A DNA stretch of 64,000 bases from Ignavibacteria bacterium (GTDB lineage Bacteria > Elusimicrobiota > Endomicrobiia > PHAN01), in the NCBI GenBank assembly GCA_041694835.1, contig JBGFRZ010000032.1:12544-76543 (forward strand), given 5' to 3'. Positions 539 through 24,277 of this stretch are shown here, piece by piece (the stretch's first letter is position 1; each line of letters starts with the position of its first letter). The notes beneath the pieces are model-generated. The model was not told where the DNA came from and searched no databases. It saw only the letters and a list, made by a program, of their open reading frames with translations. The position numbers were made by a program, and so were the translations under genes.

Positions 539-561
539 CATCTTATCACTCAATTAACTTA

Positions 562-1284
562 TCAGCCTGCTTTGTTTATTTTTTCTATCATTTCTCTGAC
601 GGCGTTATCCAGTCCGACAAACACCGCTCTCGCTATTATCGAAAAACCGATGTTCAACTCGTTCATACCGGGAATTTTAACCACAGAAGTTACATTATCG
701 TAATTTAAACCGTGGCCGGCGTTCAAAATAACTCCGTTTTTTAAGGCGATTGCCGCTGCTTTTTTTAAAGTCCCGAGATTTTTTTCACATTCCTCTTTTG
801 TAGGGCTATTCGCATAAATACCCGTATGAAGCTCGACACAGTCGGCGCCTACTTTTTTCGATGACACTATCTGCGATTCTTCCGCGTTTACAAACATGCT
901 CACTCTGATGCCGGCCGATTTCAACCTCGCGACGACGCTTCTGAGATAATCTGCGTTGCCCGCAACATCCAGACCCCCCTCGGTTGTAAGTTCGCTTCTT
1001 TTTTCCGGGACGAGACAGACATCGTGGGGCATGAGTTCTAAAGCTATTTTTATGATATCTTCCGCCGCCGCCATTTCAAGGTTTAACTTTGTATTTATGT
1101 TTTTCTTTAAATCATAGACATCAGCGTCCTGTATGTGCCGCCTGTCCTCTCTCAAATGGACTGTTATCCCGTCGGCGCCCGCTTTTTCGCAAACGAGAGC
1201 GGCCTCAAGGAGATTTGGAAATCCCTCTTTCCTCGCCTGCCTTAGGGTTGCGATGTGATCTATGTTTACACCAAGTTTTACCAT
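562..1284 (-). CDS. pdxJ: pyridoxine 5'-phosphate synthase
   Basis: LGVNIDHIATLRQAR, HLREDRRHI, ELHTG and NAGHGL motifs. Confidence 0.97.
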   Translation of the reverse strand: MVKLGVNIDHIATLRQARKEGFPNLLEAALVCEKAGADGITVHLREDRRHIQDADVYDLKKNINTKLNLEMAAAEDIIKIALELMPHDVCLVPEKRSELTTEGGLDVAGNADYLRSVVARLKSAGIRVSMFVNAEESQIVSSKKVGADCVELHTGIYANSPTKEECEKNLGTLKKAAAIALKNGVILNAGHGLNYDNVTSVVKIPGMNELNIGFSIIARAVFVGLDNAVREMIEKINKAG

Positions 1285-5145: not shown

Positions 5146-7018
5146 CTTCGGAATGTTGAGGCGATGCAATTTCATTTAAGTGCTCGTTTGCATTTGTGAA
5201 AACGGTGCCGTTTATAGGCGCAAGAGTACCGCCGGAAAGAATTGTGTCTACATCTTCTCCGTCAAGAACCTCCCTTTCGATAAGAAACTTCGCGAGGTGC
5301 ACAAGTTTTTCCTTGTTGGCGCCAAGTATTTCAGATGCGCGGTTTTTGCATTTTTCAACTATATCTTTTGTTTCGGCGTCTATTATTTCAAGGGTTTTTT
5401 CCGAGAGGTGGTTCTGCCTCGCTATCTCTCTGCCGAGGAAGATTTCCTCTTCAGGTTTCTTTAACGAAAGGGGGCCGAGTTTCTCGCCCATGCCGAACTC
5501 ATAGACCATCTTTCTTGCAACATCGGTTGCCTTTGAAAGGTCGTTTTGTCCACCGGTCGTTATCTCGTTGAACATCAACTCCTCGGCGCATCTTCCGGCG
5601 AGCAACACTGAAAGTCTTGCAAGGATTTCAGTTTTTGTCGTCAGATACTTGTCTTCAAGAGGGAGCTGAAGGGTGTATCCAAGCGCTGGTCCGCGCGGTA
5701 TTATCGATACCTTATGGACGGGGTCTGTTCCGGGCAAAATTTTTGCGACGAGGGCGTGGCCCGCCTCGTGATACGCTATTATGTTTTTCTCATGCTCGGA
5801 TATCATCCTTGATTTTCTCGCCGGGCCTGCTATAACCCTGTCGATAGCCTCTTCCATCTCCTCCATATTGACGGCTTCATTGTTTTTTCTCGCCGCAAGA
5901 AGCGCCGCTTCGTTGACGAGGTTTGCTATGTCCGAGCCAACAAAACCCGGCGTCCGTCGGGCTATTATCCTTAAATCCACTTTATCTCCTATACGCACTC
6001 CCCTGCAATGAACTTTCAATATCTCTTCGCGTCCCTTCAAATCCGGGGTGGGAACGTTTATGTGTCTGTCGAATCTTCCAGGCCTTAAAAGCGCCGGATC
6101 CAGAACATCGGGTCTGTTTGTCGCTGCTATGAGAATCACCCCCTCTTTAGTGTCAAAGCCGTCCATCTCAACAAGAATCTGATTTAGGGTCTGCTCCCGC
6201 TCGTCGTGACCGCCGCCGATACCCGCGAATCTATGTCTGCCTACGGCGTCTATCTCGTCTATAAATAAAAGACATGGGGCACTCTTTCTTCCCTGCTCGA
6301 ACAAATCCCTGACTCTGGAGGCGCCAACGCCGACAAACATCTCGACAAACTCGCTCCCCGAAGACGAAAAGAAAGGAACCCCCGCTTCACCGGCGACAGC
6401 TTTCGCAAGAAGGGTTTTTCCCGTACCGGGAGCGCCGTAGAGCAGCACGCCTTTCGGTATTTTTCCGCCGAGCTTCTGGAATTTTTTCGGGTCTTTCAGA
6501 AATTCTATTATTTCTTTCAGTTCTTCTTTCGCCTCGTCGCATCCGGCGACGTTTTCGAAAGTTATCTTTTGATCCTTCTCCGACCTGAGTTTCGCCTTAC
6601 TTTTTGCAAAAGTCATAACCTGCCTGCCACCGCCCTGCATATTGCGTAGCATGAATATCCAAAAGATGATAAACAGCAGTATCGGGCCAAAGTTCAGGAG
6701 AATCGTTCCGAACCATCCCGCCCCTGTTTCCGCCGAATAACTTTTAACCCCGTATTTTGAGAGTTCGTCCGCAAGGCGGCTGTCGGGAAGGGCGGTGGTT
6801 TTGAATTTTATTTTTTTATCGTCGACGAGATACTCGCCTCTGAGCACATTTTCCTTTACAGTCAATCTTTCCACTTTGCCTTCTTTCAATTTTTCGTAAA
6901 AAGTGGAATATGGGATATCTTCGACGAGAGTGGACTCCCTGTATGTCCTCGTTAAGTAGAATATCGCAAAAAATAAAAGCACCCAAATCAAAAGGCTTGT
7001 CCAGTTTCTTTCCTTCAT
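5135..7018 (-). CDS. ftsH: ATP-dependent zinc metalloprotease FtsH
   Basis: Two TM helices, GAPGTGKT Walker A, FIDEID Walker B, SRH, HEAGH zinc motif. Confidence 0.98.
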
Positions 7019-7578
7019 TTTTCTCCTCTGTATATTTCAGGTTTTAATATTCCCACATAGGGCAGATTTCTGTATCTTTCCCTATAATCAAGACCGTATC
7101 CTACGAGAAATTTGTTTGGAACATCAAAACCCTTGTAATCGACTCTTACCTCTTTTCTTCTGGCCTCGAATTTATCGAGCAAGACGCATACTTTGAGAGA
7201 TGCCAGATCTCTTGTCATAAAGTTTCTTAAAATATAATCAAGCGTATAGCCGGTATCGACTATGTCTTCAATAATGAGAATGTCTTTGCCAACAGGAGAT
7301 TCCCTTAGATCCATAATCATCCTTACAACGCCCGATGTCTCAATCCCGCCCCGATAAGATGAAACCGAAATAAAATCCACTTTGCACGGCATCGAGATAT
7401 TTCTCATCAAATCTGCAAGAAACACGATGCTTCCCTTCAGGATGGAAACGAGAGTAAGCTCTTTGCCGCGATAATCTTCGGATATCCGAACGCCGAGTTC
7501 CCTGACTTTTTCTCTGATAGCGTCCTTTTCGATTAGAACTTTTTCGATGTCGTCGTTGGGGTTTATTGAAAACTTCAT
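7015..7578 (-). CDS. hpt: hypoxanthine phosphoribosyltransferase
   Basis: ILKGS, IIEDIVDTGYT PRPP loop, VGYGLD; tilS-hpt-ftsH synteny. Confidence 0.96.
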   Translation of the reverse strand: MKFSINPNDDIEKVLIEKDAIREKVRELGVRISEDYRGKELTLVSILKGSIVFLADLMRNISMPCKVDFISVSSYRGGIETSGVVRMIMDLRESPVGKDILIIEDIVDTGYTLDYILRNFMTRDLASLKVCVLLDKFEARRKEVRVDYKGFDVPNKFLVGYGLDYRERYRNLPYVGILKPEIYRGEK

Positions 7579-7584
7579 AATATC

Positions 7585-8535
7585 TTAACCTGAACGCCCG
7601 ACCAGATATGCCGACTTTCGCTTTTTTTCAATCAGATATCTACCTACAGAAAGACGACGGGATGAAATGTCTGACAAAAAGGCATTTATCCTGAAGAATA
7701 AATCAAAATCAAGCGGGCGACCGAGCCAGCTTCTTACCACCTCATACCTTACTATGTTATTATACCGAAAAAAGTGGGATAAATCAAGAACTCCGTCGGT
7801 AACACAACTGACGACCGCCTTTTTTGAATACGCGGCAAAAAAATCGTCCAAATCGCAAAGCAACGACGAAAGGTTGTTCAGATGCCTTATGACCGAAGGC
7901 CTGAATTTTTCAAGATATGGAATTATTTTGTTTCTGATTTTGTTTCTGAAAAATTTATCGCTCAAGTTGGTTTTATCAAGTGAATATCTGAATCTATTTT
8001 GCGAAAGATATCGCATTATCTCTTTTTTCTCAAAAAAAAGAAGTGGTCTTGAGACGCAAACCTTCGGTGAAAGCCATCTTTTCAACGGAATGCCGGCAAG
8101 ACCTTTAAGACCGACTCCCCTGAGCAACCACATTATTACCGTCTCGGCGTTGTCGTTCGCGGTGTGGGCGGTCATTATTTTATTGAAACCGTTTTTCACG
8201 GCAATATCAAGGAGATTTTTGTACCTTAAATCCCTTGCCTCTTCTTCGATAGACGCCATTTTCTGGAGATGAATTTTTCTGACGACAAATCTCCATTTGT
8301 AAGAACCGGCTATTTTTTTTACAATATCCACGTCTTTTTTTATCTCAGAGCGAGGCCTGATAGGGTGATCGAAATAGACAAGGATAGCATCGATATTGAA
8401 CAATCTCCGATATTTTCCCAGAAGGTGAGCAAGACAGACAGAGTCCACCCCGCCTGATATGGAAAGTATTATTCTGTCGTTTTTTCCGATGAGTTCGTAC
8501 TTCTTGCAGTTTTCGGCGAATTTTTTATCAAGCAT
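7585..8535 (-). CDS. tilS: tRNA(Ile)-lysidine synthetase (short form)
   Basis: SGGVDS PP-loop, EEEARDLRY, TAHTANDNAET, RPLL and RNKIR; start placed at MLDKK. Confidence 0.92.
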   Translation of the reverse strand: MLDKKFAENCKKYELIGKNDRIILSISGGVDSVCLAHLLGKYRRLFNIDAILVYFDHPIRPRSEIKKDVDIVKKIAGSYKWRFVVRKIHLQKMASIEEEARDLRYKNLLDIAVKNGFNKIMTAHTANDNAETVIMWLLRGVGLKGLAGIPLKRWLSPKVCVSRPLLFFEKKEIMRYLSQNRFRYSLDKTNLSDKFFRNKIRNKIIPYLEKFRPSVIRHLNNLSSLLCDLDDFFAAYSKKAVVSCVTDGVLDLSHFFRYNNIVRYEVVRSWLGRPLDFDLFFRINAFLSDISSRRLSVGRYLIEKKRKSAYLVGRSG

Positions 8536-8715
8536 TAAGGTGGGGGTCGAACCCACGACCTACGGCTTACTCGCCCCGCACCTTTTTATAATTTACCAGG
8601 GGTGGGGATTGAACCCACGACCTACGGCTTATGAGTCCGCTGCTCTACCACTGAGCTACCCTGGCATTAAAAGGTGCGGGGCAAGTCCGCTGCTCTACCA
8701 CTGAGCTACCCTGCT
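8531..8715 (-). pseudogene. split second copy of the same tRNA (5' half ~8684-8715, 3' half ~8531-8569) interrupted at the anticodon loop
   Basis: 8684-8713 is identical to 8634-8663; 8539-8569 matches 8601-8631 with 2 T-loop differences; the insert is bounded by 17-18 bp inverted repeats. Confidence 0.75.
8594..8665 (-). tRNA. tRNA with CAT anticodon, probably tRNA-Ile2 (elongator Met not excluded)
   Basis: GCCAGGGTAGCTCAGTGGTAGAGCAGCGGACTCATAAGCCGTAGGTCGTGGGTTCAATCCCCACCCCTGGTA folds as a cloverleaf; lacks fMet features; lies next to tilS; CCA not encoded. Confidence 0.9.
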
Positions 8716-8851
8716 AAATTTCAGTATATTGAAACCGTTGACGCTTCGCTAAAACCCGGATTTCGTGTATCTGCACCCGTCTTACGGCGCTAATTTATCA
8801 ATGAGGGCACCGCAAGGCAGTGCTCGCACAAAGACCTTTTTCAGCGAGCTC

Positions 8852-8880
8852 ATTATACAAAAAACACGATGGGAAAGCAA
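8852..8880 (-). promoter_or_regulatory. sigma70-type promoter for the tRNA-tilS-hpt-ftsH operon
   Basis: TTGCTT-17 bp-TATAAT on the minus strand. Confidence 0.6.
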
Positions 8881-8889
8881 AAATCCGAA

Positions 8890-10104
8890 TCAGTATCGGT
8901 AGGAAAATCTTACTCCGAAGGAGAATGCTGTGAAATTATACGGCAGATACTTTTCGTATTTCATATTCGAGGAAGATGTCTGATTGGCCAAATATAATGT
9001 GGTTGTTGTCACAGGATTCGGCATGTAGTTAAATCCGCATGTGATTATCTGAAGAGCATTCTGTTGTTTTTCTTTTAAAAAATTTCCGTTACCGTCTCTT
9101 GCCGGACGGCTGGAATATGATTTTATTTCATGGTCTAAAATCAAAAAGAGCTCCCATGCTTTTGCAACTGAAAGATATAACGGAAGCGACAAACTCAATT
9201 GAGAGAAAGAATAGTAGTCGGAGTGATAAGGAGAAATTTTTGCCGGCGCGGTTGAGGTGACATCGTCGAAATGAAGATAATTCTGATTAGATGCTCTCAT
9301 TCCGTACTTTACTCCGGGCGAGGTAGCAAAGATTCCTGATGCAAGGTCAACCGCGCTGGCTATCGTCACAATCGTATCGCTCTGGAGAGCCCCCGAGTAA
9401 AAACTGCCGTCGGGCTGAACTATGTTGGTGATGACTTTCTGTCTGAAATAATTTTGAAGAGTTATATCAACAGAACCCTTGAGCATTTTCCATTCGCCAG
9501 AAAGACCGAGTTGCGTCAGAGCGTGGTCTTGTTTGCCGGCGGATGATTCCGCCGTGCCGCCTTCAGTGACTCTGAGTTCTGCAAGTAAATCGGTGTAGTT
9601 CGGAAAAATCATAGAATGATATTGAAAATTCCCGGAAAGAGCAACTTCGCCGAATTTTTTCTGAACGCCCAAAAGTCCGCCGAAACGATTTATGTCGTAT
9701 AGCCCATAACCCCATAGTTCGTTTGTGCCCGAACGTCGCAACTGCTTCCAATAATCAATTTGTGATTTTAATCTGAAGTTCCAGGGTGTATCCCAGTGAT
9801 GTCTGAATACGACCATGTGGTCCATCGTCCTATTGGTAAACTGCTCGCCTTCCTGTCTCTTGACTCCCGGCCCGCTATATTTTATCTGATAAAATCCTAT
9901 AAGAGAATGGGCATTGTTAAGTTTTGCTATCATGCCGATGTCATTTGCAAGATGTAGGTCAAAAAACCAACCGCCGCGCGAAGGGATGGATACGCCTTCT
10001 GTGATTTGCAAATTGTAGTATGGCGCGAATTTTACTTCTGAATATATCGTCGTAAAGAACGACGACAAACAGAGCAACAGGCAAATTTGATATATTTTAT
10101 ACAT
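8890..10104 (-). CDS. exported protein, probable outer-membrane beta-barrel
   Basis: Signal peptide, aromatic-rich alternating strands, C-terminal GVRFSYRY beta-signal-like end. Confidence 0.6.
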   Translation of the reverse strand: MYKIYQICLLLCLSSFFTTIYSEVKFAPYYNLQITEGVSIPSRGGWFFDLHLANDIGMIAKLNNAHSLIGFYQIKYSGPGVKRQEGEQFTNRTMDHMVVFRHHWDTPWNFRLKSQIDYWKQLRRSGTNELWGYGLYDINRFGGLLGVQKKFGEVALSGNFQYHSMIFPNYTDLLAELRVTEGGTAESSAGKQDHALTQLGLSGEWKMLKGSVDITLQNYFRQKVITNIVQPDGSFYSGALQSDTIVTIASAVDLASGIFATSPGVKYGMRASNQNYLHFDDVTSTAPAKISPYHSDYYSFSQLSLSLPLYLSVAKAWELFLILDHEIKSYSSRPARDGNGNFLKEKQQNALQIITCGFNYMPNPVTTTTLYLANQTSSSNMKYEKYLPYNFTAFSFGVRFSYRY

Positions 10105-10145
10105 AAACTTCTTTAACCTTCATCATTCATTGTCGTAATTCATCG

Positions 10146-10910
10146 TTAGAAATACCAATGCCATGCAAGAAATGGATGAATCACTATTACACCCTCGGGA
10201 TAAATGTTCATACCAACTTCCACATGCGGCGATGATGCGGTAATGCGGGCCATTAGTTTATTGTATCTGACGCCGTACGCCATTTGACTGACGACAAACC
10301 TGTCTTTTGATATTTGATGCTCAAGTCCGCCGAAAATAAATATCTCAGACGCTGCGACATTTAAATCGGAGATTTTAAGTCCGCCGCCAAAATCAAGTGG
10401 CTCCGACGGTTTAAAATTCAAATTGACATAAGAGAACTTCGGCCCTATGAATAATCTGTTACTTTGGTCGACTCTTTTAGTTAAAATAAGTCCTACAGTG
10501 TAGTCGTAAAGTGTCGGCTTGACCGTCGAAGTACTTGAAGAATCTCGAGACATCATAGCGGCCGCGACTGCGACGCCGATATTCTGTCCATACTGCCCCT
10601 GAATATCTATCTGAGGAATATAACGTCTTTCATTGAGCACTTTTACTTTCAGATTTAGTCCCGCCCATGTGAAAGGGATAAATGTCGGGAAGAAATTGAA
10701 TCTTACCTGAGCATTTCTGTATGCCGGCACAGGGACGGAGTCCTCCATATTGGAGTGCAGGTCAAATAGAAAATCCGCCGGATTATCGATAAAGCGCAGT
10801 CCCAAATTGATGATTTCTTGAGGAAGTTTAGGCGAGTCGGAAGCCATGGCCGAAGCGTTTAAAAGTGTAATTATTAAAACCGCCCGGATAACTATTCTCA
10901 TAATATCCAT
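10146..10910 (-). CDS. exported protein, probable small outer-membrane beta-barrel
   Basis: Signal peptide ending AMA; amphipathic strands; ends FLAWHWYF. Confidence 0.55.
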   Translation of the reverse strand: MDIMRIVIRAVLIITLLNASAMASDSPKLPQEIINLGLRFIDNPADFLFDLHSNMEDSVPVPAYRNAQVRFNFFPTFIPFTWAGLNLKVKVLNERRYIPQIDIQGQYGQNIGVAVAAAMMSRDSSSTSTVKPTLYDYTVGLILTKRVDQSNRLFIGPKFSYVNLNFKPSEPLDFGGGLKISDLNVAASEIFIFGGLEHQISKDRFVVSQMAYGVRYNKLMARITASSPHVEVGMNIYPEGVIVIHPFLAWHWYF

Positions 10911-10923
10911 AGATGTTTAAGGC

Positions 10924-11120
10924 AACAAATGACAAATAGAGGATAGAGATGAGAGAACAGAGGTGATAGTTCAAGAGTTGAGAGTTTAGAGTGTAGAGTT
11001 GAGAGATGTCGCCGGGTATCTCTAAACTCTAAACTAAGTTCTCTAAACTTGTCCTCTCGTCTCTGACCCTTGTCCCCTGACCTCTGACCTCTGTCCTCTG
11101 CTGCTCTTGTGCACTATCAC
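10924..11120. repeat. bipartite heptamer tandem-repeat array (purine block, then complementary pyrimidine block)
   Basis: AGAGGAT/AGAGTTG/AGAGTTT units followed by CTCTAAA/CTCTGAC/CTCTGTC units. Confidence 0.85.
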
Positions 11121-11121
11121 T

Positions 11122-12729
11122 TTATAGACGAATAAGTGACTTCGGCGACTTATTTTCGTTGATGCCGCTTGAAAATTTAATCCTGGACAAACCCGATGCC
11201 ATCTTCGAGGCCATTGCGATAACTATATCGGGAGTAAAAATTAAATCGATATTGCGGCCTTCAAAGAAATCTCCTTTAACTTTAAGCAACGCGTCTTTTT
11301 GAGTTGGCATCTCAACCTCTTTGACGAATATTACATTCTGTAAAGCGATTTCTTTGAACAACTTAAAAGGATTCGTCTCACCGCCAACGAAAGTATTTTT
11401 TGTCAACAAACCGCCTGAATTATTGATAGCATACGCCTCTGTCCAGACAGAGACATATTTGGTCTGACCATCCCGTTCTATTTTCATCTCCGGCGATTTC
11501 GCCCAGATATACAATTCCTCGCCGCCATCATCCATACTCTCGCTTTTTGCTATGGAGTTGTAAGATTCGTTGATTTTCCATCCGTTCAAAAATATTTCAG
11601 ATTTCATATCGTCTTTACCGTCGACAACTTTTCTGCGCGCTTTAATTTCATACGAGTCCTTTCTATTAGTCAGCGTCACTTCGGCCGATTCCAACTTGAT
11701 GTTATCGCCTCTGTCGAAAAAATATTTGGGCCAATCGGTCATGGCGTCGGGCAGATTTTCGGAAAACTTTATTTTTGCGTTGCAAATATCCATGCGATGG
11801 CCTGTCGTGCCCGAATATGCATCTTTGAAAAAACCCGCATACCGGTACGAATCGCGTTTTGTTATGTTAACAAACTGAATCGTATCCGCCTCCGGCCTTA
11901 AAAACTGCTGTTCAACCCTCACAAGATTTCCGAATCTATCGGTCAAAGTTCTTCCCGAAGATATATCTGCCTGTTTTATCTCGTTCGTGATGTCGCGCGC
12001 AACAACTATGTCGGCTTTCACATCCCTGATCATCTCCCGAAGTTCTTGTTTTATCTGCGCAAGTTCGGAAGCGACATCATCTCTTTTGGTTTTTTCGTCC
12101 TCCTCAACTTTTTCGTCGCTCTTTTCTTCCAATCTCTTTCCCTCTTCGAGCGCTCCATTGAAAGTCTCCTGCCACTCGTTCTGACGTGATTGAAGTTCAT
12201 CGGCGGACAAAATTTTTTCAATGGGCAATCCTGTTTCATCGAGCTTCGCCAAATTGCCCGATTCGACTGTTATGGACTGGCTCATCATTATATCACTGAA
12301 CTCGACGGCGCCTTCAAAAACGACAAGCTCGCCGTATGAATCTATCCCGAAATCCGTCCCTCTGACCGAAGCAACCGCAACAGGGGTCACAACCCTGAAC
12401 TTCGAGCCTCCAGCCAGTTTTACCTTCGCTCTTATCTTTCCCATTATCAGTGAAAACACACTTTCGTCTTTTGATGGGCTTTTCACTTCCATCTCGGAGT
12501 TTTCACGAACATATATCTTTGATTCGCCATCAAGAAGCACTGCCTGCGAGTTGGAGGCGGTCTTTATTTTGTCGAGATGCGAAACTCCGTCCCCCATCCT
12601 GGCTTCCCGCCAAACCCCGGATCGCATGGCCGCCACAGGGCCAACGGTTGCAATTATTTTTACTTCAGAAAATAAATCAGACGCCGCAAACGCACATATA
12701 AAAATCGACACTAAAATTTTATATCTCAT
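11122..12729 (-). CDS. secreted FecR-domain protein with coiled-coil and unknown C-terminal domain
   Basis: GGAGG RBS before MRYKIL, signal peptide, FRVVTPVAVASVRGTDF...VFEG FecR motif. Confidence 0.8.
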   Translation of the reverse strand: MRYKILVSIFICAFAASDLFSEVKIIATVGPVAAMRSGVWREARMGDGVSHLDKIKTASNSQAVLLDGESKIYVRENSEMEVKSPSKDESVFSLIMGKIRAKVKLAGGSKFRVVTPVAVASVRGTDFGIDSYGELVVFEGAVEFSDIMMSQSITVESGNLAKLDETGLPIEKILSADELQSRQNEWQETFNGALEEGKRLEEKSDEKVEEDEKTKRDDVASELAQIKQELREMIRDVKADIVVARDITNEIKQADISSGRTLTDRFGNLVRVEQQFLRPEADTIQFVNITKRDSYRYAGFFKDAYSGTTGHRMDICNAKIKFSENLPDAMTDWPKYFFDRGDNIKLESAEVTLTNRKDSYEIKARRKVVDGKDDMKSEIFLNGWKINESYNSIAKSESMDDGGEELYIWAKSPEMKIERDGQTKYVSVWTEAYAINNSGGLLTKNTFVGGETNPFKLFKEIALQNVIFVKEVEMPTQKDALLKVKGDFFEGRNIDLIFTPDIVIAMASKMASGLSRIKFSSGINENKSPKSLIRL

Positions 12730-22000: not shown

Positions 22001-24094
22001 GACATAACTTGAAGGGTTTATGCTGAAGGGGGCCGTCGCCATCCTGACAAGATAGTTGAGTGACTGCTGAGGTGTTTTATCATCGGAACCGTCTTGAAAA
22101 GATATGACCAGATTTTCGTCGATATATTCTGCGATTGGCCCTGGCGGAGCTGATGGCGCAGCGTTGATTTTACCTGAATCTCTGTATGTGTTTTTGTAAA
22201 TTCTTATCAAATTCGAAATGCCCGAAGACGGCGACCCCGAAACGACGAGATCCAGATCCCCATCGTTGTCTATGTCGCCGAAAACGACCGATGAGAGCTG
22301 GAGACCGAGATTCTGACCAAGAATCTCCTGGTCGGAATAAAACGTTCCGGAAGAATTCTTAAACAATATAAATCTCAAAAGACCGTTATTGTCCCTCCCT
22401 GTCACAACAATATCCGGCCATCCGTCGGTGTTGTAATCGCCGAAGGCAAGCGAGCTATTGTCAACACCTGCAGCCAAACCCATTGGCTCCTGGTCGAGGC
22501 TAAAAACACCGTTTGTATTCTTAAAAAGAATAAGCCGTCTACCAGATGCTGTTCCATCAATTGTTCCGCTTACCGCTATATCCAGATCGCCGTCGAGGTC
22601 GTAGTCGCAAAAAGCCACAGAGCCGTTCTCAAGACCGATATTGACACCTAAGGGTTCTTGGTCGATTAAAAAAGTTCCGGAAGAATTCCTAAATAAAATG
22701 AATCTCCTGTTGCCTGTCGTATCTCTGCCTATGGCAGCAAGGTCAACCCATCCATCTTTGTTGTAGTCGCCGACGGACAGTGCCGAGTTGGAAAGCCCTG
22801 TCAAATCAAAACGCATCGTAAAACTTGAATTGTTGTTCTCATACACCCTTAAGTATCTGTTGTTGGGCAAACTACCAGGTCCGATGCCGCTTACGACAAT
22901 GTCGTTGTCACCGTCATTGTCGAAATCCATCAAAACAACACACCCCATGACAAATCCGTCGGCGGAACCCATTGGTTCGCTGTCCAGAACAAACGGTGGA
23001 GTGCCGGAGGTGTTTCTGTAAACAAAAAATCTCCTGGTTGAGCCGTCAGGTGAACCGACCGCGATCTTGTCATCTTTACCGTCGGAATTTATGTCGCCGA
23101 AATAGAGGGAACTAGCCTGAAGGCCGACGGGAAATTCCTGCCACAACGAAAAATTTCCGACAGAATTTCTGTATATAACGTTTTTTCTGCTCACACCATC
23201 AAAGCCGCTGACAGCCAAATCTATGTAGCCGTCTGTGTCTATATCCGAAAAAGAAAAGCCGTTTTCGCTCGACAAAACATCACGAAGCCCCTCGAATGTT
23301 TGTGAGAGAAAAAAAGACGACGATACTGCAGTCGCCGTAGATGACCAGTTTGACTGGTTAGAGTTTTCGTCGAATGCAGATATCCATATATAGTGGGTGG
23401 CCGACGGGAGGAGCGAGGTGAGCATGAAGACATGGCTTGTGGCTGGTGAAAAATTCGATGATATAGAGATTTGATAAGTCGCTGTTTGCGGTGTGTCGGA
23501 AGGATTCGTTGAATATCTTATTAAAAATCCGCCGCCGACTACCGAGCCGTTGTAAACATCATCGCCGGGAGCCGTCCATGTAAGTAAAATCTGGGCGGAC
23601 AGCGTCGCCGAAAGATTCGTGATCTGCCCGGGAGGCAGTAAATCCCTCTGCGCCCAAGATGTAGCGGCATTAGAGATTGGAGAAAAGTTGGCAGGCGGAG
23701 ATGATGTCCAAATTCTGAAAAAGTATGTCGCCCCGCCGGTCAAACCGGTTATTGTGTGGCTTTGCGGCGCGCCGGAATTAACATTTGATGTGGATATTCT
23801 TATTTGCGCCGAAGCGGTTGACCAAACAACGTCGGAATCCTGCGAATGCTGTATGAAATATGTCGAACCAACAGGGAGGGAAGATGGACCGGGATACATC
23901 CATCCCAACACAACCCCGCCTTCGGACTGCCCCCGGGTGGCGTTTAGATTTGTAACGGGGGACGGCTGGGCCGAAAGATAAAAAGGCCCCGCTATTAAAA
24001 AAAAGACAATTAGCGCTCCGTGACAAAAATAAAAAGCCCCCGCAAACCCGCGGTGGCTTGTAGATAAATGACTGACAAAATTAATTTTTATCAT
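19049..24094 (-). CDS. large surface protein: Fn3-like repeats, 7-blade FG-GAP propeller, T9SS type-B-like (gliding-motility-associated) C-terminal domain
   Basis: Seven DxDxDGxxD motifs; LxWxAPGD and Fn3 repeats; C-terminal ITPNGDNKND...IFDKMG...WDG...VPSGIYIYQI; start uncertain. Confidence 0.85.
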   Translation of the reverse strand: MIKINFVSHLSTSHRGFAGAFYFCHGALIVFFLIAGPFYLSAQPSPVTNLNATRGQSEGGVVLGWMYPGPSSLPVGSTYFIQHSQDSDVVWSTASAQIRISTSNVNSGAPQSHTITGLTGGATYFFRIWTSSPPANFSPISNAATSWAQRDLLPPGQITNLSATLSAQILLTWTAPGDDVYNGSVVGGGFLIRYSTNPSDTPQTATYQISISSNFSPATSHVFMLTSLLPSATHYIWISAFDENSNQSNWSSTATAVSSSFFLSQTFEGLRDVLSSENGFSFSDIDTDGYIDLAVSGFDGVSRKNVIYRNSVGNFSLWQEFPVGLQASSLYFGDINSDGKDDKIAVGSPDGSTRRFFVYRNTSGTPPFVLDSEPMGSADGFVMGCVVLMDFDNDGDNDIVVSGIGPGSLPNNRYLRVYENNNSSFTMRFDLTGLSNSALSVGDYNKDGWVDLAAIGRDTTGNRRFILFRNSSGTFLIDQEPLGVNIGLENGSVAFCDYDLDGDLDIAVSGTIDGTASGRRLILFKNTNGVFSLDQEPMGLAAGVDNSSLAFGDYNTDGWPDIVVTGRDNNGLLRFILFKNSSGTFYSDQEILGQNLGLQLSSVVFGDIDNDGDLDLVVSGSPSSGISNLIRIYKNTYRDSGKINAAPSAPPGPIAEYIDENLVISFQDGSDDKTPQQSLNYLVRMATAPFSINPSSYVVSPQWATPFSGNYPRPKRIGTTNSILIKKLAIRTTYYFSVASIDSGLLKSVWSDENSHYIADIYPPRAVTSIVAVTGASEGEIKLSWIAPGDIPQNKKVSEYIIKYATFSINSLLGDTTAWWSVATSLNNTPSPQSPGSEEITGISGLFPSSTYYFSIKSKDADGNISPIDEPTVSLTQAFSYALDIVPAPPTGLKSVASSGLVELFWNDMLGQLGYLDFDYYEIHRSTDGNTYSLIGTTRSNTYVDTSVTNGTTYFYKMNSYDAPPQIFISAFSSVVSTRPIGVPSAPSEFSGMVLSTGSILWSWKDNSPDEDGFRIFSSTNALLSELPHGTTIWLETNFSANTNYSRYVAAYNSVSISSSNVASRYTMAMPPVDSYVLKRTSHSIEITWSNNGNPASTRWGVLRSTNNFFTSTFTLSSFANNQTGTTFTDSAGLEPATTYYYKVQAFNSEGIPTIYDTTISTITLPAIPSEPLGFRGVAVSTVAINWTWEITSSATYYQIYRAGDNHLLKNLEGNETISWNEIGLEPNTQYSRYIKAGNASGVSFGSSVVSKYTLANPPGNLGSIAKTKNSITLSWQSPTGGSSKFRLERSLDGLFFSVVSDNISGSSSTYTDGNLSHSTTYYYRLYGFNGDGIITAPTDIVNVMTDKVVDKMPPLAPTGVRGSFSGGIFQIFWDEVKYNEDLSPIYDIDGYLVYRSTSMDGIYEKITMLPLKSNEFSQDTKKNVYYYTIKAVDIYSNESLPSAIVASKTAPVIIVMSDNKDLFVETSAILPENSVLRITEVPEEKIGRVVKSFVVALRDIKSNKEKNVPKEQTFNISFTYFDRGSAVMSPGSYESEYAVYWFNGVRWIRFGGAVDRFNKTISVAASVLGKFQLKLTNRSTFSVGKDDVYPKIITPNGDNKNDFLIINFDGPPGIEERVVGFIFDKMGRFVKKLNKRGPNRETSLRWDGDDEFGNKVPSGIYIYQIESDDKVINGTVTVSR
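24025..24059 (-). terminator. intrinsic terminator-like hairpin downstream of the riboswitch
   Basis: AAGCCACCGC-GGGTTT-GCGGGGGCTT followed by TTTATTTTT on the minus strand. Confidence 0.65.
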
Positions 24095-24097
24095 TGT

Positions 24098-24271
24098 TTC
24101 GGTAGCCCAGCCGGCATCCGTTCAAACCCGAACCCCGTCGCCTTTCAACGACGGATTGTCCCATAACGCGGGATTTAGCCCTGTTGGCTTTGCGTCCCCC
24201 GGTTTCCCGGCATCCCGACACAAAATCGGAACGTTCCCATATGACCAGCAGGGAAGGTTTGCCTTTGTCGC
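24098..24271 (-). ncRNA. cyclic-di-GMP-I (GEMM-I) riboswitch with two expanded regions
   Basis: AAAGGCAAACC ... CCGG-GAAA-CCGG-GGGACGCAAAGCC ... GGGCTAAA ... ATGCCGGCTGGGCTACCG matches the GEMM-I consensus; G at the Vc2-G20-equivalent position. Confidence 0.75.
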
Positions 24272-24277
24272 TATAAT

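Follow-up and report, generated by a model that had tools for sequence, protein, structure and literature searches.

A tRNA(CAU) gene carried by a hairpin-ended cassette within the anticodon loop of a broken cognate gene upstream of tilS

We analyzed a 64,000-nt stretch of an Elusimicrobiota-type genome (GCA_041694835.1, contig JBGFRZ010000032.1, positions 12,544 to 76,543; hereafter the window), in which the gene for tRNA-Ile lysidine synthetase (tilS) is preceded by a nested tRNA locus. On the minus strand, positions 8715-8539 comprise the 5′ piece of a tRNA(CAU) gene, an 18-nt arm, a complete 72-nt tRNA(CAU) gene, the complementary arm, and the 3′ piece of the first gene, followed by the tilS start codon (Table 1). 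Exactly three nucleotides, the anticodon, are missing between the two outer pieces. The complete inner tRNA was called by ARAGORN as tRNA-Met(cat) at 8593-8666, and scored 69.1 bits against the Rfam tRNA model RF00005 (gathering threshold 29) over 8594-8665, with a cloverleaf structure. In contrast, ARAGORN did not call the outer copy either with or without intron search.

Table 1. Features of the nested tRNA locus (all on the minus strand; positions are those of the window)
Feature	Position	Description
Dispersed repeat	8740..8752	One copy of a 21-copy repeat (TTAGCGAAGCGTC), about 25 nt upstream of the outer 5′ piece
Outer 5′ piece	8684..8715	32 nt, AGCAGGG...GGACT; tRNA positions 1-32
Left arm	8669..8686	ACTTGCCCCGCACCTTTT; shares ACT with the outer 5′ piece; core CCCCGCACC at 8681-8673
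AAT	8666..8668
Inner tRNA(CAU)	8594..8665	72 nt, anticodon CAT, no encoded CCA
Spacer	8587..8593
Right arm	8569..8586	AAAAGGTGCGGGGCGAGT
Outer 3′ piece	8539..8568	30 nt, from the anticodon-loop AA to the end of the T stem plus one base; 3′ acceptor strand lost
tilS ATG	8533..8535	3 nt after the outer 3′ piece
tilS	7585..8535	316 aa

The structure described in the first-pass annotation, a tRNA nested inside a hairpin that splits a second copy of the same tRNA, was confirmed. As it had stated, the arms are complementary at 17 of 18 positions with a single exception that is a G-U pair on the tRNA-sense strand, and the T-loops of the outer and inner copies differ (TTCGACC against TTCAATC). The outer pieces match the inner tRNA at 58 of 62 positions (30 of 32 in the 5′ piece and 28 of 30 in the 3′ piece). 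This resemblance is not due to chance: alignment of the two flanks against their own tRNA gave scores of 30 and 26, against a 99th percentile of 13.5 in 446 mismatched controls, and the 13-nt arm motif occurs twice in the window against 0.15 expected. One detail did not hold as interpreted. The acceptor pairing proposed for the outer copy (AGCA/TGCT) is what remains after a net 16-nt loss, which removed the true 3′ acceptor strand and the spacer. The one sequencing run examined (X1) contained 0.04 of the sampled words and covered only 8586-8673, the conserved tRNA core, with contigs of other organisms, and gave no information on the junctions.

To determine which copy is ancestral at this locus, we compared it with two sister genomes of a sister genus (G001 and G002), both of which carry one intact tRNA(CAU) gene 12 nt before tilS. 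The outer 5′ piece is identical to the G001 gene at 31 of 32 positions, and the outer 3′ piece is identical to both G001 and G002 at 29 of 30 positions, including the T-loop TTCGACC, giving 2 differences in 62. The inner gene differs from the G001 orthologue at 6 of 72 positions, including a compensated acceptor pair (G2-C70 to C2-G70 in linear numbering). A pseudogene that is less diverged than the working copy means that the outer copy was working until recently and that the inner copy has a separate history. The outer copy is therefore the dead resident gene and the inner one, the working gene as judged from sequence, an incoming allele. The outer halves showed no clear donor/recipient mosaic.

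The same logic applied to other tRNA genes. In a Glu-CUC nest of G002, the outer acceptor equals that of the un-nested gene of G001, whereas the inner gene has two compensated pair changes. For tRNA-Trp of G002, the remnant T-loop is G001-like, while the working gene is identical at 71 of 75 positions to the inner Trp gene of the genome under study (G000) but at only 65 of 74 to its congener G001. The inner Pro-CGG gene of G000 is identical at 71 of 75 positions to the inner gene of G131, a genome of the same phylum but outside this class, and at only 62 of 77 to G001.

We next examined how widely this layout occurs. In G000, a metagenome-type draft of 89 contigs, about 10 of the 38 tRNA genes, approximately a quarter, show the layout or its decayed halves; six of these passed the flank alignment test, and four more, which are softer cases, were judged by eye from arms plus remnants. 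Using a strict arm pattern, 5 of 401 genomes of the phylum matched, and 6 of the 9 elements examined in three of the phylum's other genomes (G127, G131 and G150) carry a tRNA. Among 80 metagenome loci with the same arms (CCCCGCACC / GGTGCGGGG), 11 carry a tRNA, and all 11 have cognate outer pieces, although those in two loci (L155 and L166) are the weakest. Break points were found not only in the anticodon loop but also in the D loop, the variable region and the T loop. The arm pattern also hit 41 viral contigs, about what chance would give by a rough estimate; none of the 41 has a tRNA between the arms, and several belong to an unrelated giant-virus repeat. The draft state of G000 and the absence of reads across the junctions leave room for an assembly artefact in which two alleles were collapsed into one chimeric contig. 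However, this is highly improbable, since the inner and outer copies differ and the same architecture with different tRNAs occurs at about 10 loci in this assembly, in independently assembled genomes (G002, G127, G131 and G150), and in 11 metagenome contigs from many projects.

The arms belong to a dispersed inverted-repeat family. The core occurs at 15 plus 15 sites in G000 and at least 120 metagenome stretches match it, and the same arms bound both tRNA genes and non-tRNA elements. A 4-bp flanking direct repeat was present in 14 of 83 elements against 0.3 expected, mostly TCAA, TTGA, TAAA or TTTA, and the non-tRNA copies on G000 contigs C42, C54 and C81 have TTTA or TAAA duplications; this nest and most tRNA nests have no clean duplication, and here 3 nt of the target are missing. 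Elements with the same arms also sit in the P3 region of RNase P RNA genes in 7 metagenome loci, which suggests that the family colonizes loops of structural RNA genes more generally. Two RNase P loci with the same flanks and arms hold interiors that are reverse complements of each other (51 of 62, against 37 of 66 on the same strand). None of the 69 non-tRNA elements showed any tRNA likeness, and an Rfam search of three of those in G000 (L026, L027 and L029) matched no family. Taken together, we regard these elements as a MITE-like family.

No partner transposase with these ends was found in a search restricted to two transposase families in draft genomes. A DDE profile (PF01609) gave only a 22-bit fragment in G000 and nothing in G002, G127, G131 or G150. 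A RAYT/REP link was not supported, since the single Y1/RAYT-like gene (PF01797) sits between its own, different repeats. Two 134-nt repeats with similar ends on contig C7 flank ordinary genes rather than a transposase. A dif/Xer-like reading and an integron attC-like reading of the arms were set aside from their site layouts alone, which do not fit. Furthermore, other nests in the same family of genomes use unrelated arms (TCCCGCC/GGCGGGA, AATCATTGGA/TCCAATGATT and TCCCAATA/TATTGGGA), and one specific transposon family therefore cannot explain the whole phenomenon.

The existence of several unrelated arm sequences could be explained by a general repair process, and positions 4-32 of the inner and outer copies are identical, as might arise from a local duplication by template switching at a hairpin without any mobile element or transfer. 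We consider this very unlikely. A local duplication predicts that the inner copy equals the ancestral allele, whereas the outer copy matches the sister genomes and the inner copy carries compensated stem changes. In addition, identical arms occur at unlinked loci, in other classes of the phylum, and around non-tRNA cargo with target duplications, and inner alleles are shared across genera. One metagenome locus (L181) holds a Met(CAU) cassette with the same unusual T-loop, TTCAATC.

The 189-nt transcript of the nest (8716-8528) is predicted to fold as a cloverleaf inside a cloverleaf joined by the arm helix (-84.7 kcal/mol, z = -4.7), in which the arm helix continues the outer anticodon stem. 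This raises the possibility that the outer tRNA is still functional, as a bacterial counterpart of archaeal intron-containing or split tRNAs. An RtcB-type RNA ligase gene is present in the genome, and in the nest on contig C11 the outermost arm pairs coincide with the outer anticodon stem. However, the outer copy here lacks the anticodon and the whole 3′ acceptor strand and cannot make a complete tRNA, break points differ from nest to nest with 10-15 nt of the outer tRNA often missing, and the inner gene already supplies the same anticodon. A profile search for the tRNA-splicing endonuclease domain (PF01974) found none in the genome, while it hit 4 of 4 archaeal controls. This reading is very unlikely, and for this locus the missing acceptor strand brings it close to refutation.

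The first-pass annotation had proposed two interpretations, and this proposal is partly supported. Its first alternative, a hairpin insertion element that targets anticodon loops and carries a rescuing tRNA copy, is largely borne out, except that insertion is not restricted to anticodon loops. Its second, a tRNA-mimic leader coupling tilS translation to tRNA processing, is not supported and remains very doubtful. The tilS ATG does lie 3 nt after the outer T-arm remnant, and tRNA(CAU)-tilS linkage is conserved in the family, but the sister genomes keep this linkage without any nest, the other nests lie at unrelated loci without tilS, and the outer copy has lost its 3′ acceptor strand. TilS homologues were found in 31 of 31 related genomes searched, and the N-terminus MLDKKFAE lines up with MMEKSFAE and MLEKRFAE read from the relatives' DNA; a separate search for related loci gave only one distant TilS locus (29% identity, in a Chlorobiaceae MAG). 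Of 19 related loci scanned for tRNAs, only the two from this family have a tRNA(CAU) before tilS. The linked tRNA is probably elongator tRNA-Met rather than the TilS substrate, although the evidence is weak: it is identical to tRNA-Ile(GAU) at 49-50 positions, against 54-57 for the tRNA(CAU) of the type found on contig C79, and a BLAST comparison with E. coli matched only tRNA-Arg and tRNA-Thr cores at 84%, which is uninformative. A side effect of the remnant hairpin on tilS translation is not excluded.

The interpretation we favor, with reasonable though not full confidence, is that a promoter-less tRNA cassette displaces its cognate gene in situ. The sequence comparisons themselves establish that a roughly 115-bp non-autonomous cassette, consisting of two inverted-repeat arms (the core plus an A/T run) around a complete, CCA-less tRNA(CAU) gene, sits in the anticodon loop of the resident gene, that the outer pieces are the remains of that gene and the inner gene is a different allele, and that the same arms bound other tRNA genes nested in their own cognate remnants as well as non-tRNA elements carrying target-site duplications. 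Only 3 nt separate the left arm from the inner tRNA, which leaves no room for a promoter of its own. Expression and processing are, on the other hand, inferred from sequence alone. In this view, the whole nest would be transcribed from the resident gene's promoter, of which the 21-copy repeat upstream may be part. A promoter scan found no consensus site directly upstream, and our reading of TTAGCG, 17 nt and TATACT as a promoter was not supported by it. In the precursor, the arms would form a GC-rich helix that closes the inner tRNA off as its own folding domain, away from the near-identical outer halves; RNase P, RNase Z and the CCA-adding enzyme would then release the inner tRNA, RNase III may also cut the arm helix, and the outer halves would be discarded. 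Because the cassette would supply the function that its insertion destroys, the insertion would be tolerated only in a cognate gene and could not afterwards be lost. The outer gene would then decay, here by losing its anticodon and 3′ acceptor strand so that the remnant now abuts the tilS start codon, while direct-repeat deletion would give half-nests and re-invasion several layers. This reading leaves unexplained how some 15 different tRNA species came to lie between the same arms.

Cognate placement might reflect selection alone, but if insertion were random and only filtered by selection, some free tRNA cassettes should exist, and none was seen. Every tRNA-bearing element examined (about 10 in G000, 11 in metagenome loci, 6 in other genomes of the phylum, and 2 in G002) lies in remnants of its own cognate gene. 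A sharper version of the favored interpretation is possible, though it remains tentative, in which a dedicated mechanism finds the cognate gene by its likeness to the cargo, either through recombination of a pre-formed nest via its outer halves or with the cargo tRNA acting as a guide. The Pro-CGG nests of G000 and G131 share junction positions as well as near-identical inner genes, and a three-layer Glu nest in G127 repeats the same junction in each layer. In contrast, Glu-CUC nests in G002, G127 and G000 are broken at three different places, which argues for separate insertions rather than the spread of one nest, and T-loop nests of Val, Arg, Met and Lys share junction sequences, which looks like site preference rather than cargo guidance; no enzyme candidate was found. 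In its most speculative and unlikely form, bacteria of several phyla would host a class of selfish tRNA-replacement cassettes that home specifically into their cognate genes, kill them, take over their function so that they can never be lost, and pass between distant lineages. This would be a gene-drive-like way of turning over core translation genes and a new way for a mobile element to choose its target.

tRNA genes are taken to be among the most stably inherited genes. Under the favored interpretation, about a quarter of them in one genome have been displaced in place by incoming alleles riding in a 100-bp hairpin cassette, and near-identical cassettes turn up in lineages outside this class. 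tRNA gene trees in these lineages need not follow the organism. Since tRNA finders report only the inner gene, broken outer copies and layered nests go unseen in annotation. A cassette that destroys an essential gene while supplying its replacement could not be lost, and the arm helix would be a natural design for releasing one structured RNA from inside another. Literature searches on nested and disrupted tRNA genes and on MITEs with tRNA cargo returned nothing on bacterial nested tRNA genes, although most subscription journals and all supplements lay outside these searches.

Among known systems, bacterial MITEs and mobile insertion cassettes are inverted-repeat-bounded, transposase-less elements, some with passenger genes. 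The cassettes described here share with them the terminal inverted repeats, small size, many dispersed copies, lack of an internal transposase, and insertion in either orientation; a 4-bp flanking direct repeat is limited to the 14 of 83 elements noted above, and this nest and most tRNA nests have none. They differ in that the passenger is a working tRNA gene found only inside the broken cognate gene, that beyond the 9-nt core the arms differ between copies yet stay complementary within each copy (median perfect stem 14 bp), that the interiors are unrelated between copies, and that no partner IS was found. Intervening sequences of bacterial 23S and 16S rRNA genes are hairpin insertions that replace a helix tip and are cut out by RNase III without re-joining. 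As in those, an extended helix with a variable interior is inserted into a loop of a structural RNA gene with sporadic distribution among relatives, but in a tRNA the insertion destroys function, and the loss is made good by a complete gene carried in the insert.

Archaeal disrupted tRNA genes include bulge-helix-bulge introns at non-canonical sites and split or tri-split tRNAs, and a mobile element with a recombinase has been proposed to have left a tRNA-Thr 5′ fragment beside a complete gene (Sugahara et al. 2012, PMC3293823). In both cases tRNA genes are broken in their loops, GC-rich complementary sequences sit next to the halves, and a mobile-element origin is proposed. In archaea, however, the broken gene is the working one, restored by the splicing endonuclease and a ligase, whereas here the endonuclease is absent, the outer gene is dead, and a second complete gene lies inside. 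Integrase-mediated islands and prophages at tRNA genes likewise target a tRNA gene, restore function with their own tRNA sequence, and leave displaced remnants of the host gene. Those elements are kilobases long, encode an integrase, duplicate only one side of the tRNA, namely its 3′ part, and lie next to the gene, whereas the present insert has no protein gene and both halves of the host gene flank a complete inner gene; the ORF list for 5500-12000 shows only tilS and its neighbors, which were left unannotated, on this strand. Group I introns are also inserted in bacterial tRNA anticodon loops, and this very genome has one in tRNA-Arg(UCU) (contig C49, 24241-24741; a weak Rfam RF00028 match of 25.8 bits). 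The window has no match to the group I model at Rfam's gathering threshold, and the nested insert is too short for a ribozyme core, holds a tRNA instead, and does not restore the host tRNA.

As a first step, we mapped the locus on the minus strand. ARAGORN and Rfam both recovered the inner tRNA, and the two arms paired at 17 of 18 positions, the exception being a G-U pair on the tRNA strand. The outer pieces matched the inner tRNA at 58 of 62 positions. Alignment of the flanks against their own tRNA gave scores of 30 and 26, compared with a 99th percentile of 13.5 in 446 mismatched controls. The 189-nt stretch is predicted to fold as a cloverleaf inside a cloverleaf joined by the arm helix (-84.7 kcal/mol, z = -4.7), and 0 of 200 shuffles folded as well. 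The first-pass annotation, which had described a tRNA nested within a hairpin that splits a second copy of the same tRNA, was correct in its observation. A dispersed 21-copy repeat with the core TTAGCGAAGCGTC, often preceded by CTCTGTGGTGAATT, has one copy just upstream of the nest and 20 others elsewhere in the genome. By our reading it may carry promoter-like hexamers, although a promoter scan did not support this.

Coordinates of the nested locus and of other features in the window and the same genome (G000, the genome under study; C, a contig of G000; L, an extracted locus)
Location	Strand	Feature	Sequence, length or score
Window 8715-8684	minus	First 32 nt of a tRNA	AGCAGGG...GGACT
Window 8686-8669	minus	Left arm	ACTTGCCCCGCACCTTTT
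Window 8668-8666	minus		AAT
Window 8665-8594	minus	Complete tRNA, anticodon CAT	72 nt; ARAGORN call at 8593-8666; Rfam 69.1 bits
Window 8593-8587	minus	Spacer	7 nt
Window 8586-8569	minus	Right arm	AAAAGGTGCGGGGCGAGT
Window 8568-8539	minus	tRNA positions 36-65
Window 8535-8533	minus	tilS ATG, after three more bases	ATG
Window about 8740-8752	minus	One copy of the dispersed 21-copy repeat
Window 24098-24273	minus	c-di-GMP-I riboswitch match	Rfam RF01051, 39.5 bits (cut-off 35)
C49:24241-24741 (L270 about 540-1040, minus strand)		Split tRNA-Arg(UCU) gene	Insert of about 420 nt; Rfam RF00028, 25.8 bits (cut-off 50)
C79:19836-20297 (L254)		RNase P RNA	Rfam 83.8 bits (cut-off 100)
C55:47300-47510	minus	Three tandem repeats downstream of tRNA-Phe	About 72 nt each
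C7:21386-21519 and 22948-23081		Two copies of an element with ends ATCCCGCAC(C)...GGTGCGGGAT	134 nt each
C41:8757-9467 (L133 1758-2468)		RAYT-like Y1 transposase gene	NCBIfam REP_Tyr_transpos, 62.7 bits (cut-off 80)

We next examined whether the layout recurs in the genome, a 1.9-Mb draft of 89 contigs with 42% G+C, 97% completeness and 38 tRNA genes. A scan for inverted repeats hugging each tRNA found arms of the same kind around five more genes, namely Thr-CGU (C55), Pro-UGG (C11), Trp (C4), Cys (C68) and Pro-CGG (C82), and in each case pieces of a second tRNA of the same kind lay outside the arms. When each tRNA was formally aligned against its own 110-nt flanks, six of 38 passed: Met, Cys, Pro-CGG, Tyr, Val-UAC and Glu-CUC. 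Four more, Trp, Pro-UGG, Thr-CGU and Ala-GGC, fell below the threshold but showed arms plus recognisable remnants when read by eye, so that our count of about 10 of 38 is partly a matter of judgement. Tyr, Val-UAC and Ala-GGC are half-nests with a remnant on one side only, whereas Glu-CUC at C54 looks three layers deep. On C55, each of the tandem repeats between tRNA-Phe and the Thr-CGU nest ends with a copy of the tRNA-Phe 3′ end (TCCTGCGGCA) and a T run. Given this recurrence within one assembly and in independent assemblies, an assembly artefact is very unlikely, as judged from the assemblies alone.

The outer gene is broken at a different place in each nest, in the D loop, in the anticodon loop, after the anticodon stem or in the T stem, and often 10-15 nt are missing. 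A working split or intron-bearing outer tRNA fails at this locus, since there is no anticodon, no 3′ acceptor strand and no splicing endonuclease in the genome, although RtcB is present. The same genome does carry a classical-looking tRNA intron: the only tRNA-Arg(UCU) gene found is split in its anticodon loop by an insert that gives a weak group I intron match, below the Rfam cut-off, and that holds a short truncated ORF.

To determine which copy is the original, we compared the locus with the only two genomes that share the family, G001 and G002, whose TilS is 47% identical to that of G000. Both have one intact tRNA(CAU) 12 nt before tilS. The outer pieces differ from the G001 gene at 2 of 62 positions and keep its T loop, TTCGACC, whereas the inner gene differs from it at 6 of 72 positions. 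The inner differences comprise two in the T loop, one at position 43 and three in the acceptor stem, where pair 2:70 is swapped from G-C to C-G and pair 1:71 becomes G-U (linear numbering). A dead copy that is closer to the orthologue than the working copy means that it was the working gene until recently and that the inner gene came from elsewhere. This allele comparison contradicts a local duplication. Compared with the relatives, G000 has lost 16 nt net between the T stem and the tilS ATG, a loss that took the 3′ acceptor strand, and the AGCA/TGCT pairing pointed out in the first-pass annotation is therefore most likely a leftover coincidence.

The same pattern was observed at other loci. 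In the Glu-CUC nest of G002, the outer acceptor equals that of the un-nested gene of G001, while the inner gene has two compensated pair changes. The Trp gene of G002 is followed by a right arm and a remnant with a G001-type T loop, and the working gene is 71 of 75 identical to the G000 inner Trp gene but only 65 of 74 to G001, its own congener. The inner Pro-CGG gene of G000 is 71 of 75 identical to the inner Pro-CGG gene of G131, a genome listed in the same phylum but outside this class, and only 62 of 77 identical to G001. The orthologues of the G000-nested Thr-CGU, Pro-UGG, Pro-CGG and Cys genes are un-nested in G001 and G002 where they could be seen. These findings indicate that the cassettes move between lineages.

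The interpretation offered in the first-pass annotation was partly supported. Its alternative of a tRNA-like leader of tilS is contradicted by the un-nested relatives and by the other loci. The tilS-linked tRNA is also less like tRNA-Ile(GAU) than the C79-type tRNA(CAU) is (49-50 against 54-57 identities), and so it is probably elongator tRNA-Met, although this evidence is weak.

We then analyzed the arms themselves. Their core, CCCCGCACC / GGTGCGGGG, also bounds non-tRNA elements in G000, including an 84-nt element at C71, related elements at C39 and C9, and a family of about 106 nt (C42, C54 and C81) flanked by TTTA or TAAA duplications. The two C7 elements with ends ATCCCGCAC(C)...GGTGCGGGAT exactly fill intergenic gaps between ordinary genes, RpiB-like genes among them by our reading. 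A looser pattern matched 3 of 122 genomes of the class. With a stricter pattern (core, four A/T, 65-95 nt, four A/T, core), 5 of 401 genomes of the phylum matched. In three genomes of the phylum, G127, G131 and G150, 6 of the 9 elements examined carry a tRNA (Pro-CGG twice, Pro-UGG, Thr-CGU, Lys-CUU and Glu-CUC), and the Glu nest of G127 has three layers with the same junction in each. Among viral contigs there were 41 hits, none with a tRNA, and giant-virus-type contigs (viral loci L043, L045, L047, L052, L055, L056 and others) carry an unrelated hairpin repeat, AACCAAGGTTCCCCGCACCCCTCCT...AGGAGGGGTGCGGGGAACCTTGGTT, which happens to contain the same 9-mer.

In metagenome contigs, at least 120 stretches matched, and we examined 80 of these loci. 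Of the 80, 11 carry a tRNA, and all 11 lie between cognate outer pieces, loci L155 and L166 being the weakest. The remaining 69 carry unrelated interiors, none of which shows any likeness to a panel of 110 tRNAs beyond shuffled controls. Of 12 loci picked by their flanks and scanned with Rfam, seven (L134, L153, L156, L189, L198, L203 and L204) lie in the 5′ (P3) region of class-A RNase P RNA genes, and their interiors differ between otherwise near-identical loci. Two of these, L156 and L204, have identical flanks and identical 21-nt arms, but their interiors are reverse complements of each other (51 of 62, against 37 of 66 on the same strand). The RNase P RNA of G000 itself scores below the Rfam cut-off and carries several extra hairpins, including three copies or near-copies of a small CCCCGATGTTACATCGGGG hairpin and a long CCCACCACC...GGTGGTGGG stem.

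Across the elements, a 4-bp flanking direct repeat is present in 14 of 83, against 0.3 expected, and most of these are TCAA, TTGA, TAAA or TTTA. The four A/T positions are fully complementary in 71 of 80, and the median perfect stem is 14 bp, although the sequence beyond the core varies. This is the behaviour of a MITE-like DNA element that inserts in either orientation. No partner transposase was found among the two transposase families searched: a PF01609 search gave one 22-bit fragment, and the PF01797 (RAYT-like) gene sits between different repeats. This single RAYT-like Y1 transposase gene, on C41, scores below its NCBIfam cut-off and is flanked by inverted copies of a different repeat, AATTGGGGACGGTCCTCAATT.

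We regard the following as established by the analysis: that this is a DNA insertion, that the inner allele is foreign, that the outer gene is decaying, that the layout recurs, and that tRNA cargo is strictly associated with a cognate host gene. How the nest works is inferred from sequence. With only 3 nt between arm and tRNA, the cassette has no room for a promoter, and in this view it must be read from the promoter of the resident gene. It also encodes no CCA, like most tRNAs here; roughly 6 of 38 encode CCA. In the precursor, the arm helix would isolate the inner cloverleaf from the near-identical outer halves, which would otherwise compete for pairing, and RNase P and RNase Z would then release the inner tRNA. 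An insertion that kills an essential single-copy tRNA gene could survive only if the cargo replaces it, which would explain the sense orientation and the cognate pairing and would make the cassette impossible to lose. Recombination between the direct repeats (outer against inner halves) would yield the half-nests, and a new insertion into the inner gene would yield layers.

No free tRNA cassette was seen in any of the collections, which favours some homology-dependent route over blind insertion filtered by selection. Against this, Glu-CUC nests are broken at three different sites and T-loop nests of four different tRNAs share junctions, both of which look like site preference. About 15 different tRNA species lie between the same arms, a diversity that this model leaves unexplained. 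Furthermore, nests with unrelated arms exist in G000, G001 and G002, so that more than one element family, or a more general process, is involved. In the sister genomes (G001 locus L107, and G002 loci L111 and L125), we found nests with other arms or half-decayed nests: G001 Leu-CAG has arms AATCATTGGA/TCCAATGATT, G002 Thr-UGU has arms TCCCGCC/GGCGGGA, and G002 Trp keeps only a right arm and a remnant, with heptamer-like repeats replacing its left side.

In a literature search that did not extend to supplements or to most subscription journals, we found no description of bacterial tRNA genes nested in their own remnants. What this case contributes is a defined arm family shared with TSD-bearing non-tRNA elements and with RNase P RNA insertions, together with outgroup evidence, at three loci, that the outer copy is the resident gene and the inner one an immigrant. 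The nearest published case found is archaeal, in which a mobile element is proposed to have left a tRNA fragment beside a complete gene (PMC3293823). Among known systems, we place the element with inverted-repeat cassettes that carry a passenger gene, here a tRNA gene lying within the remnants of its own cognate gene, and it would deserve a category of its own if cognate targeting proves to be mechanistic.
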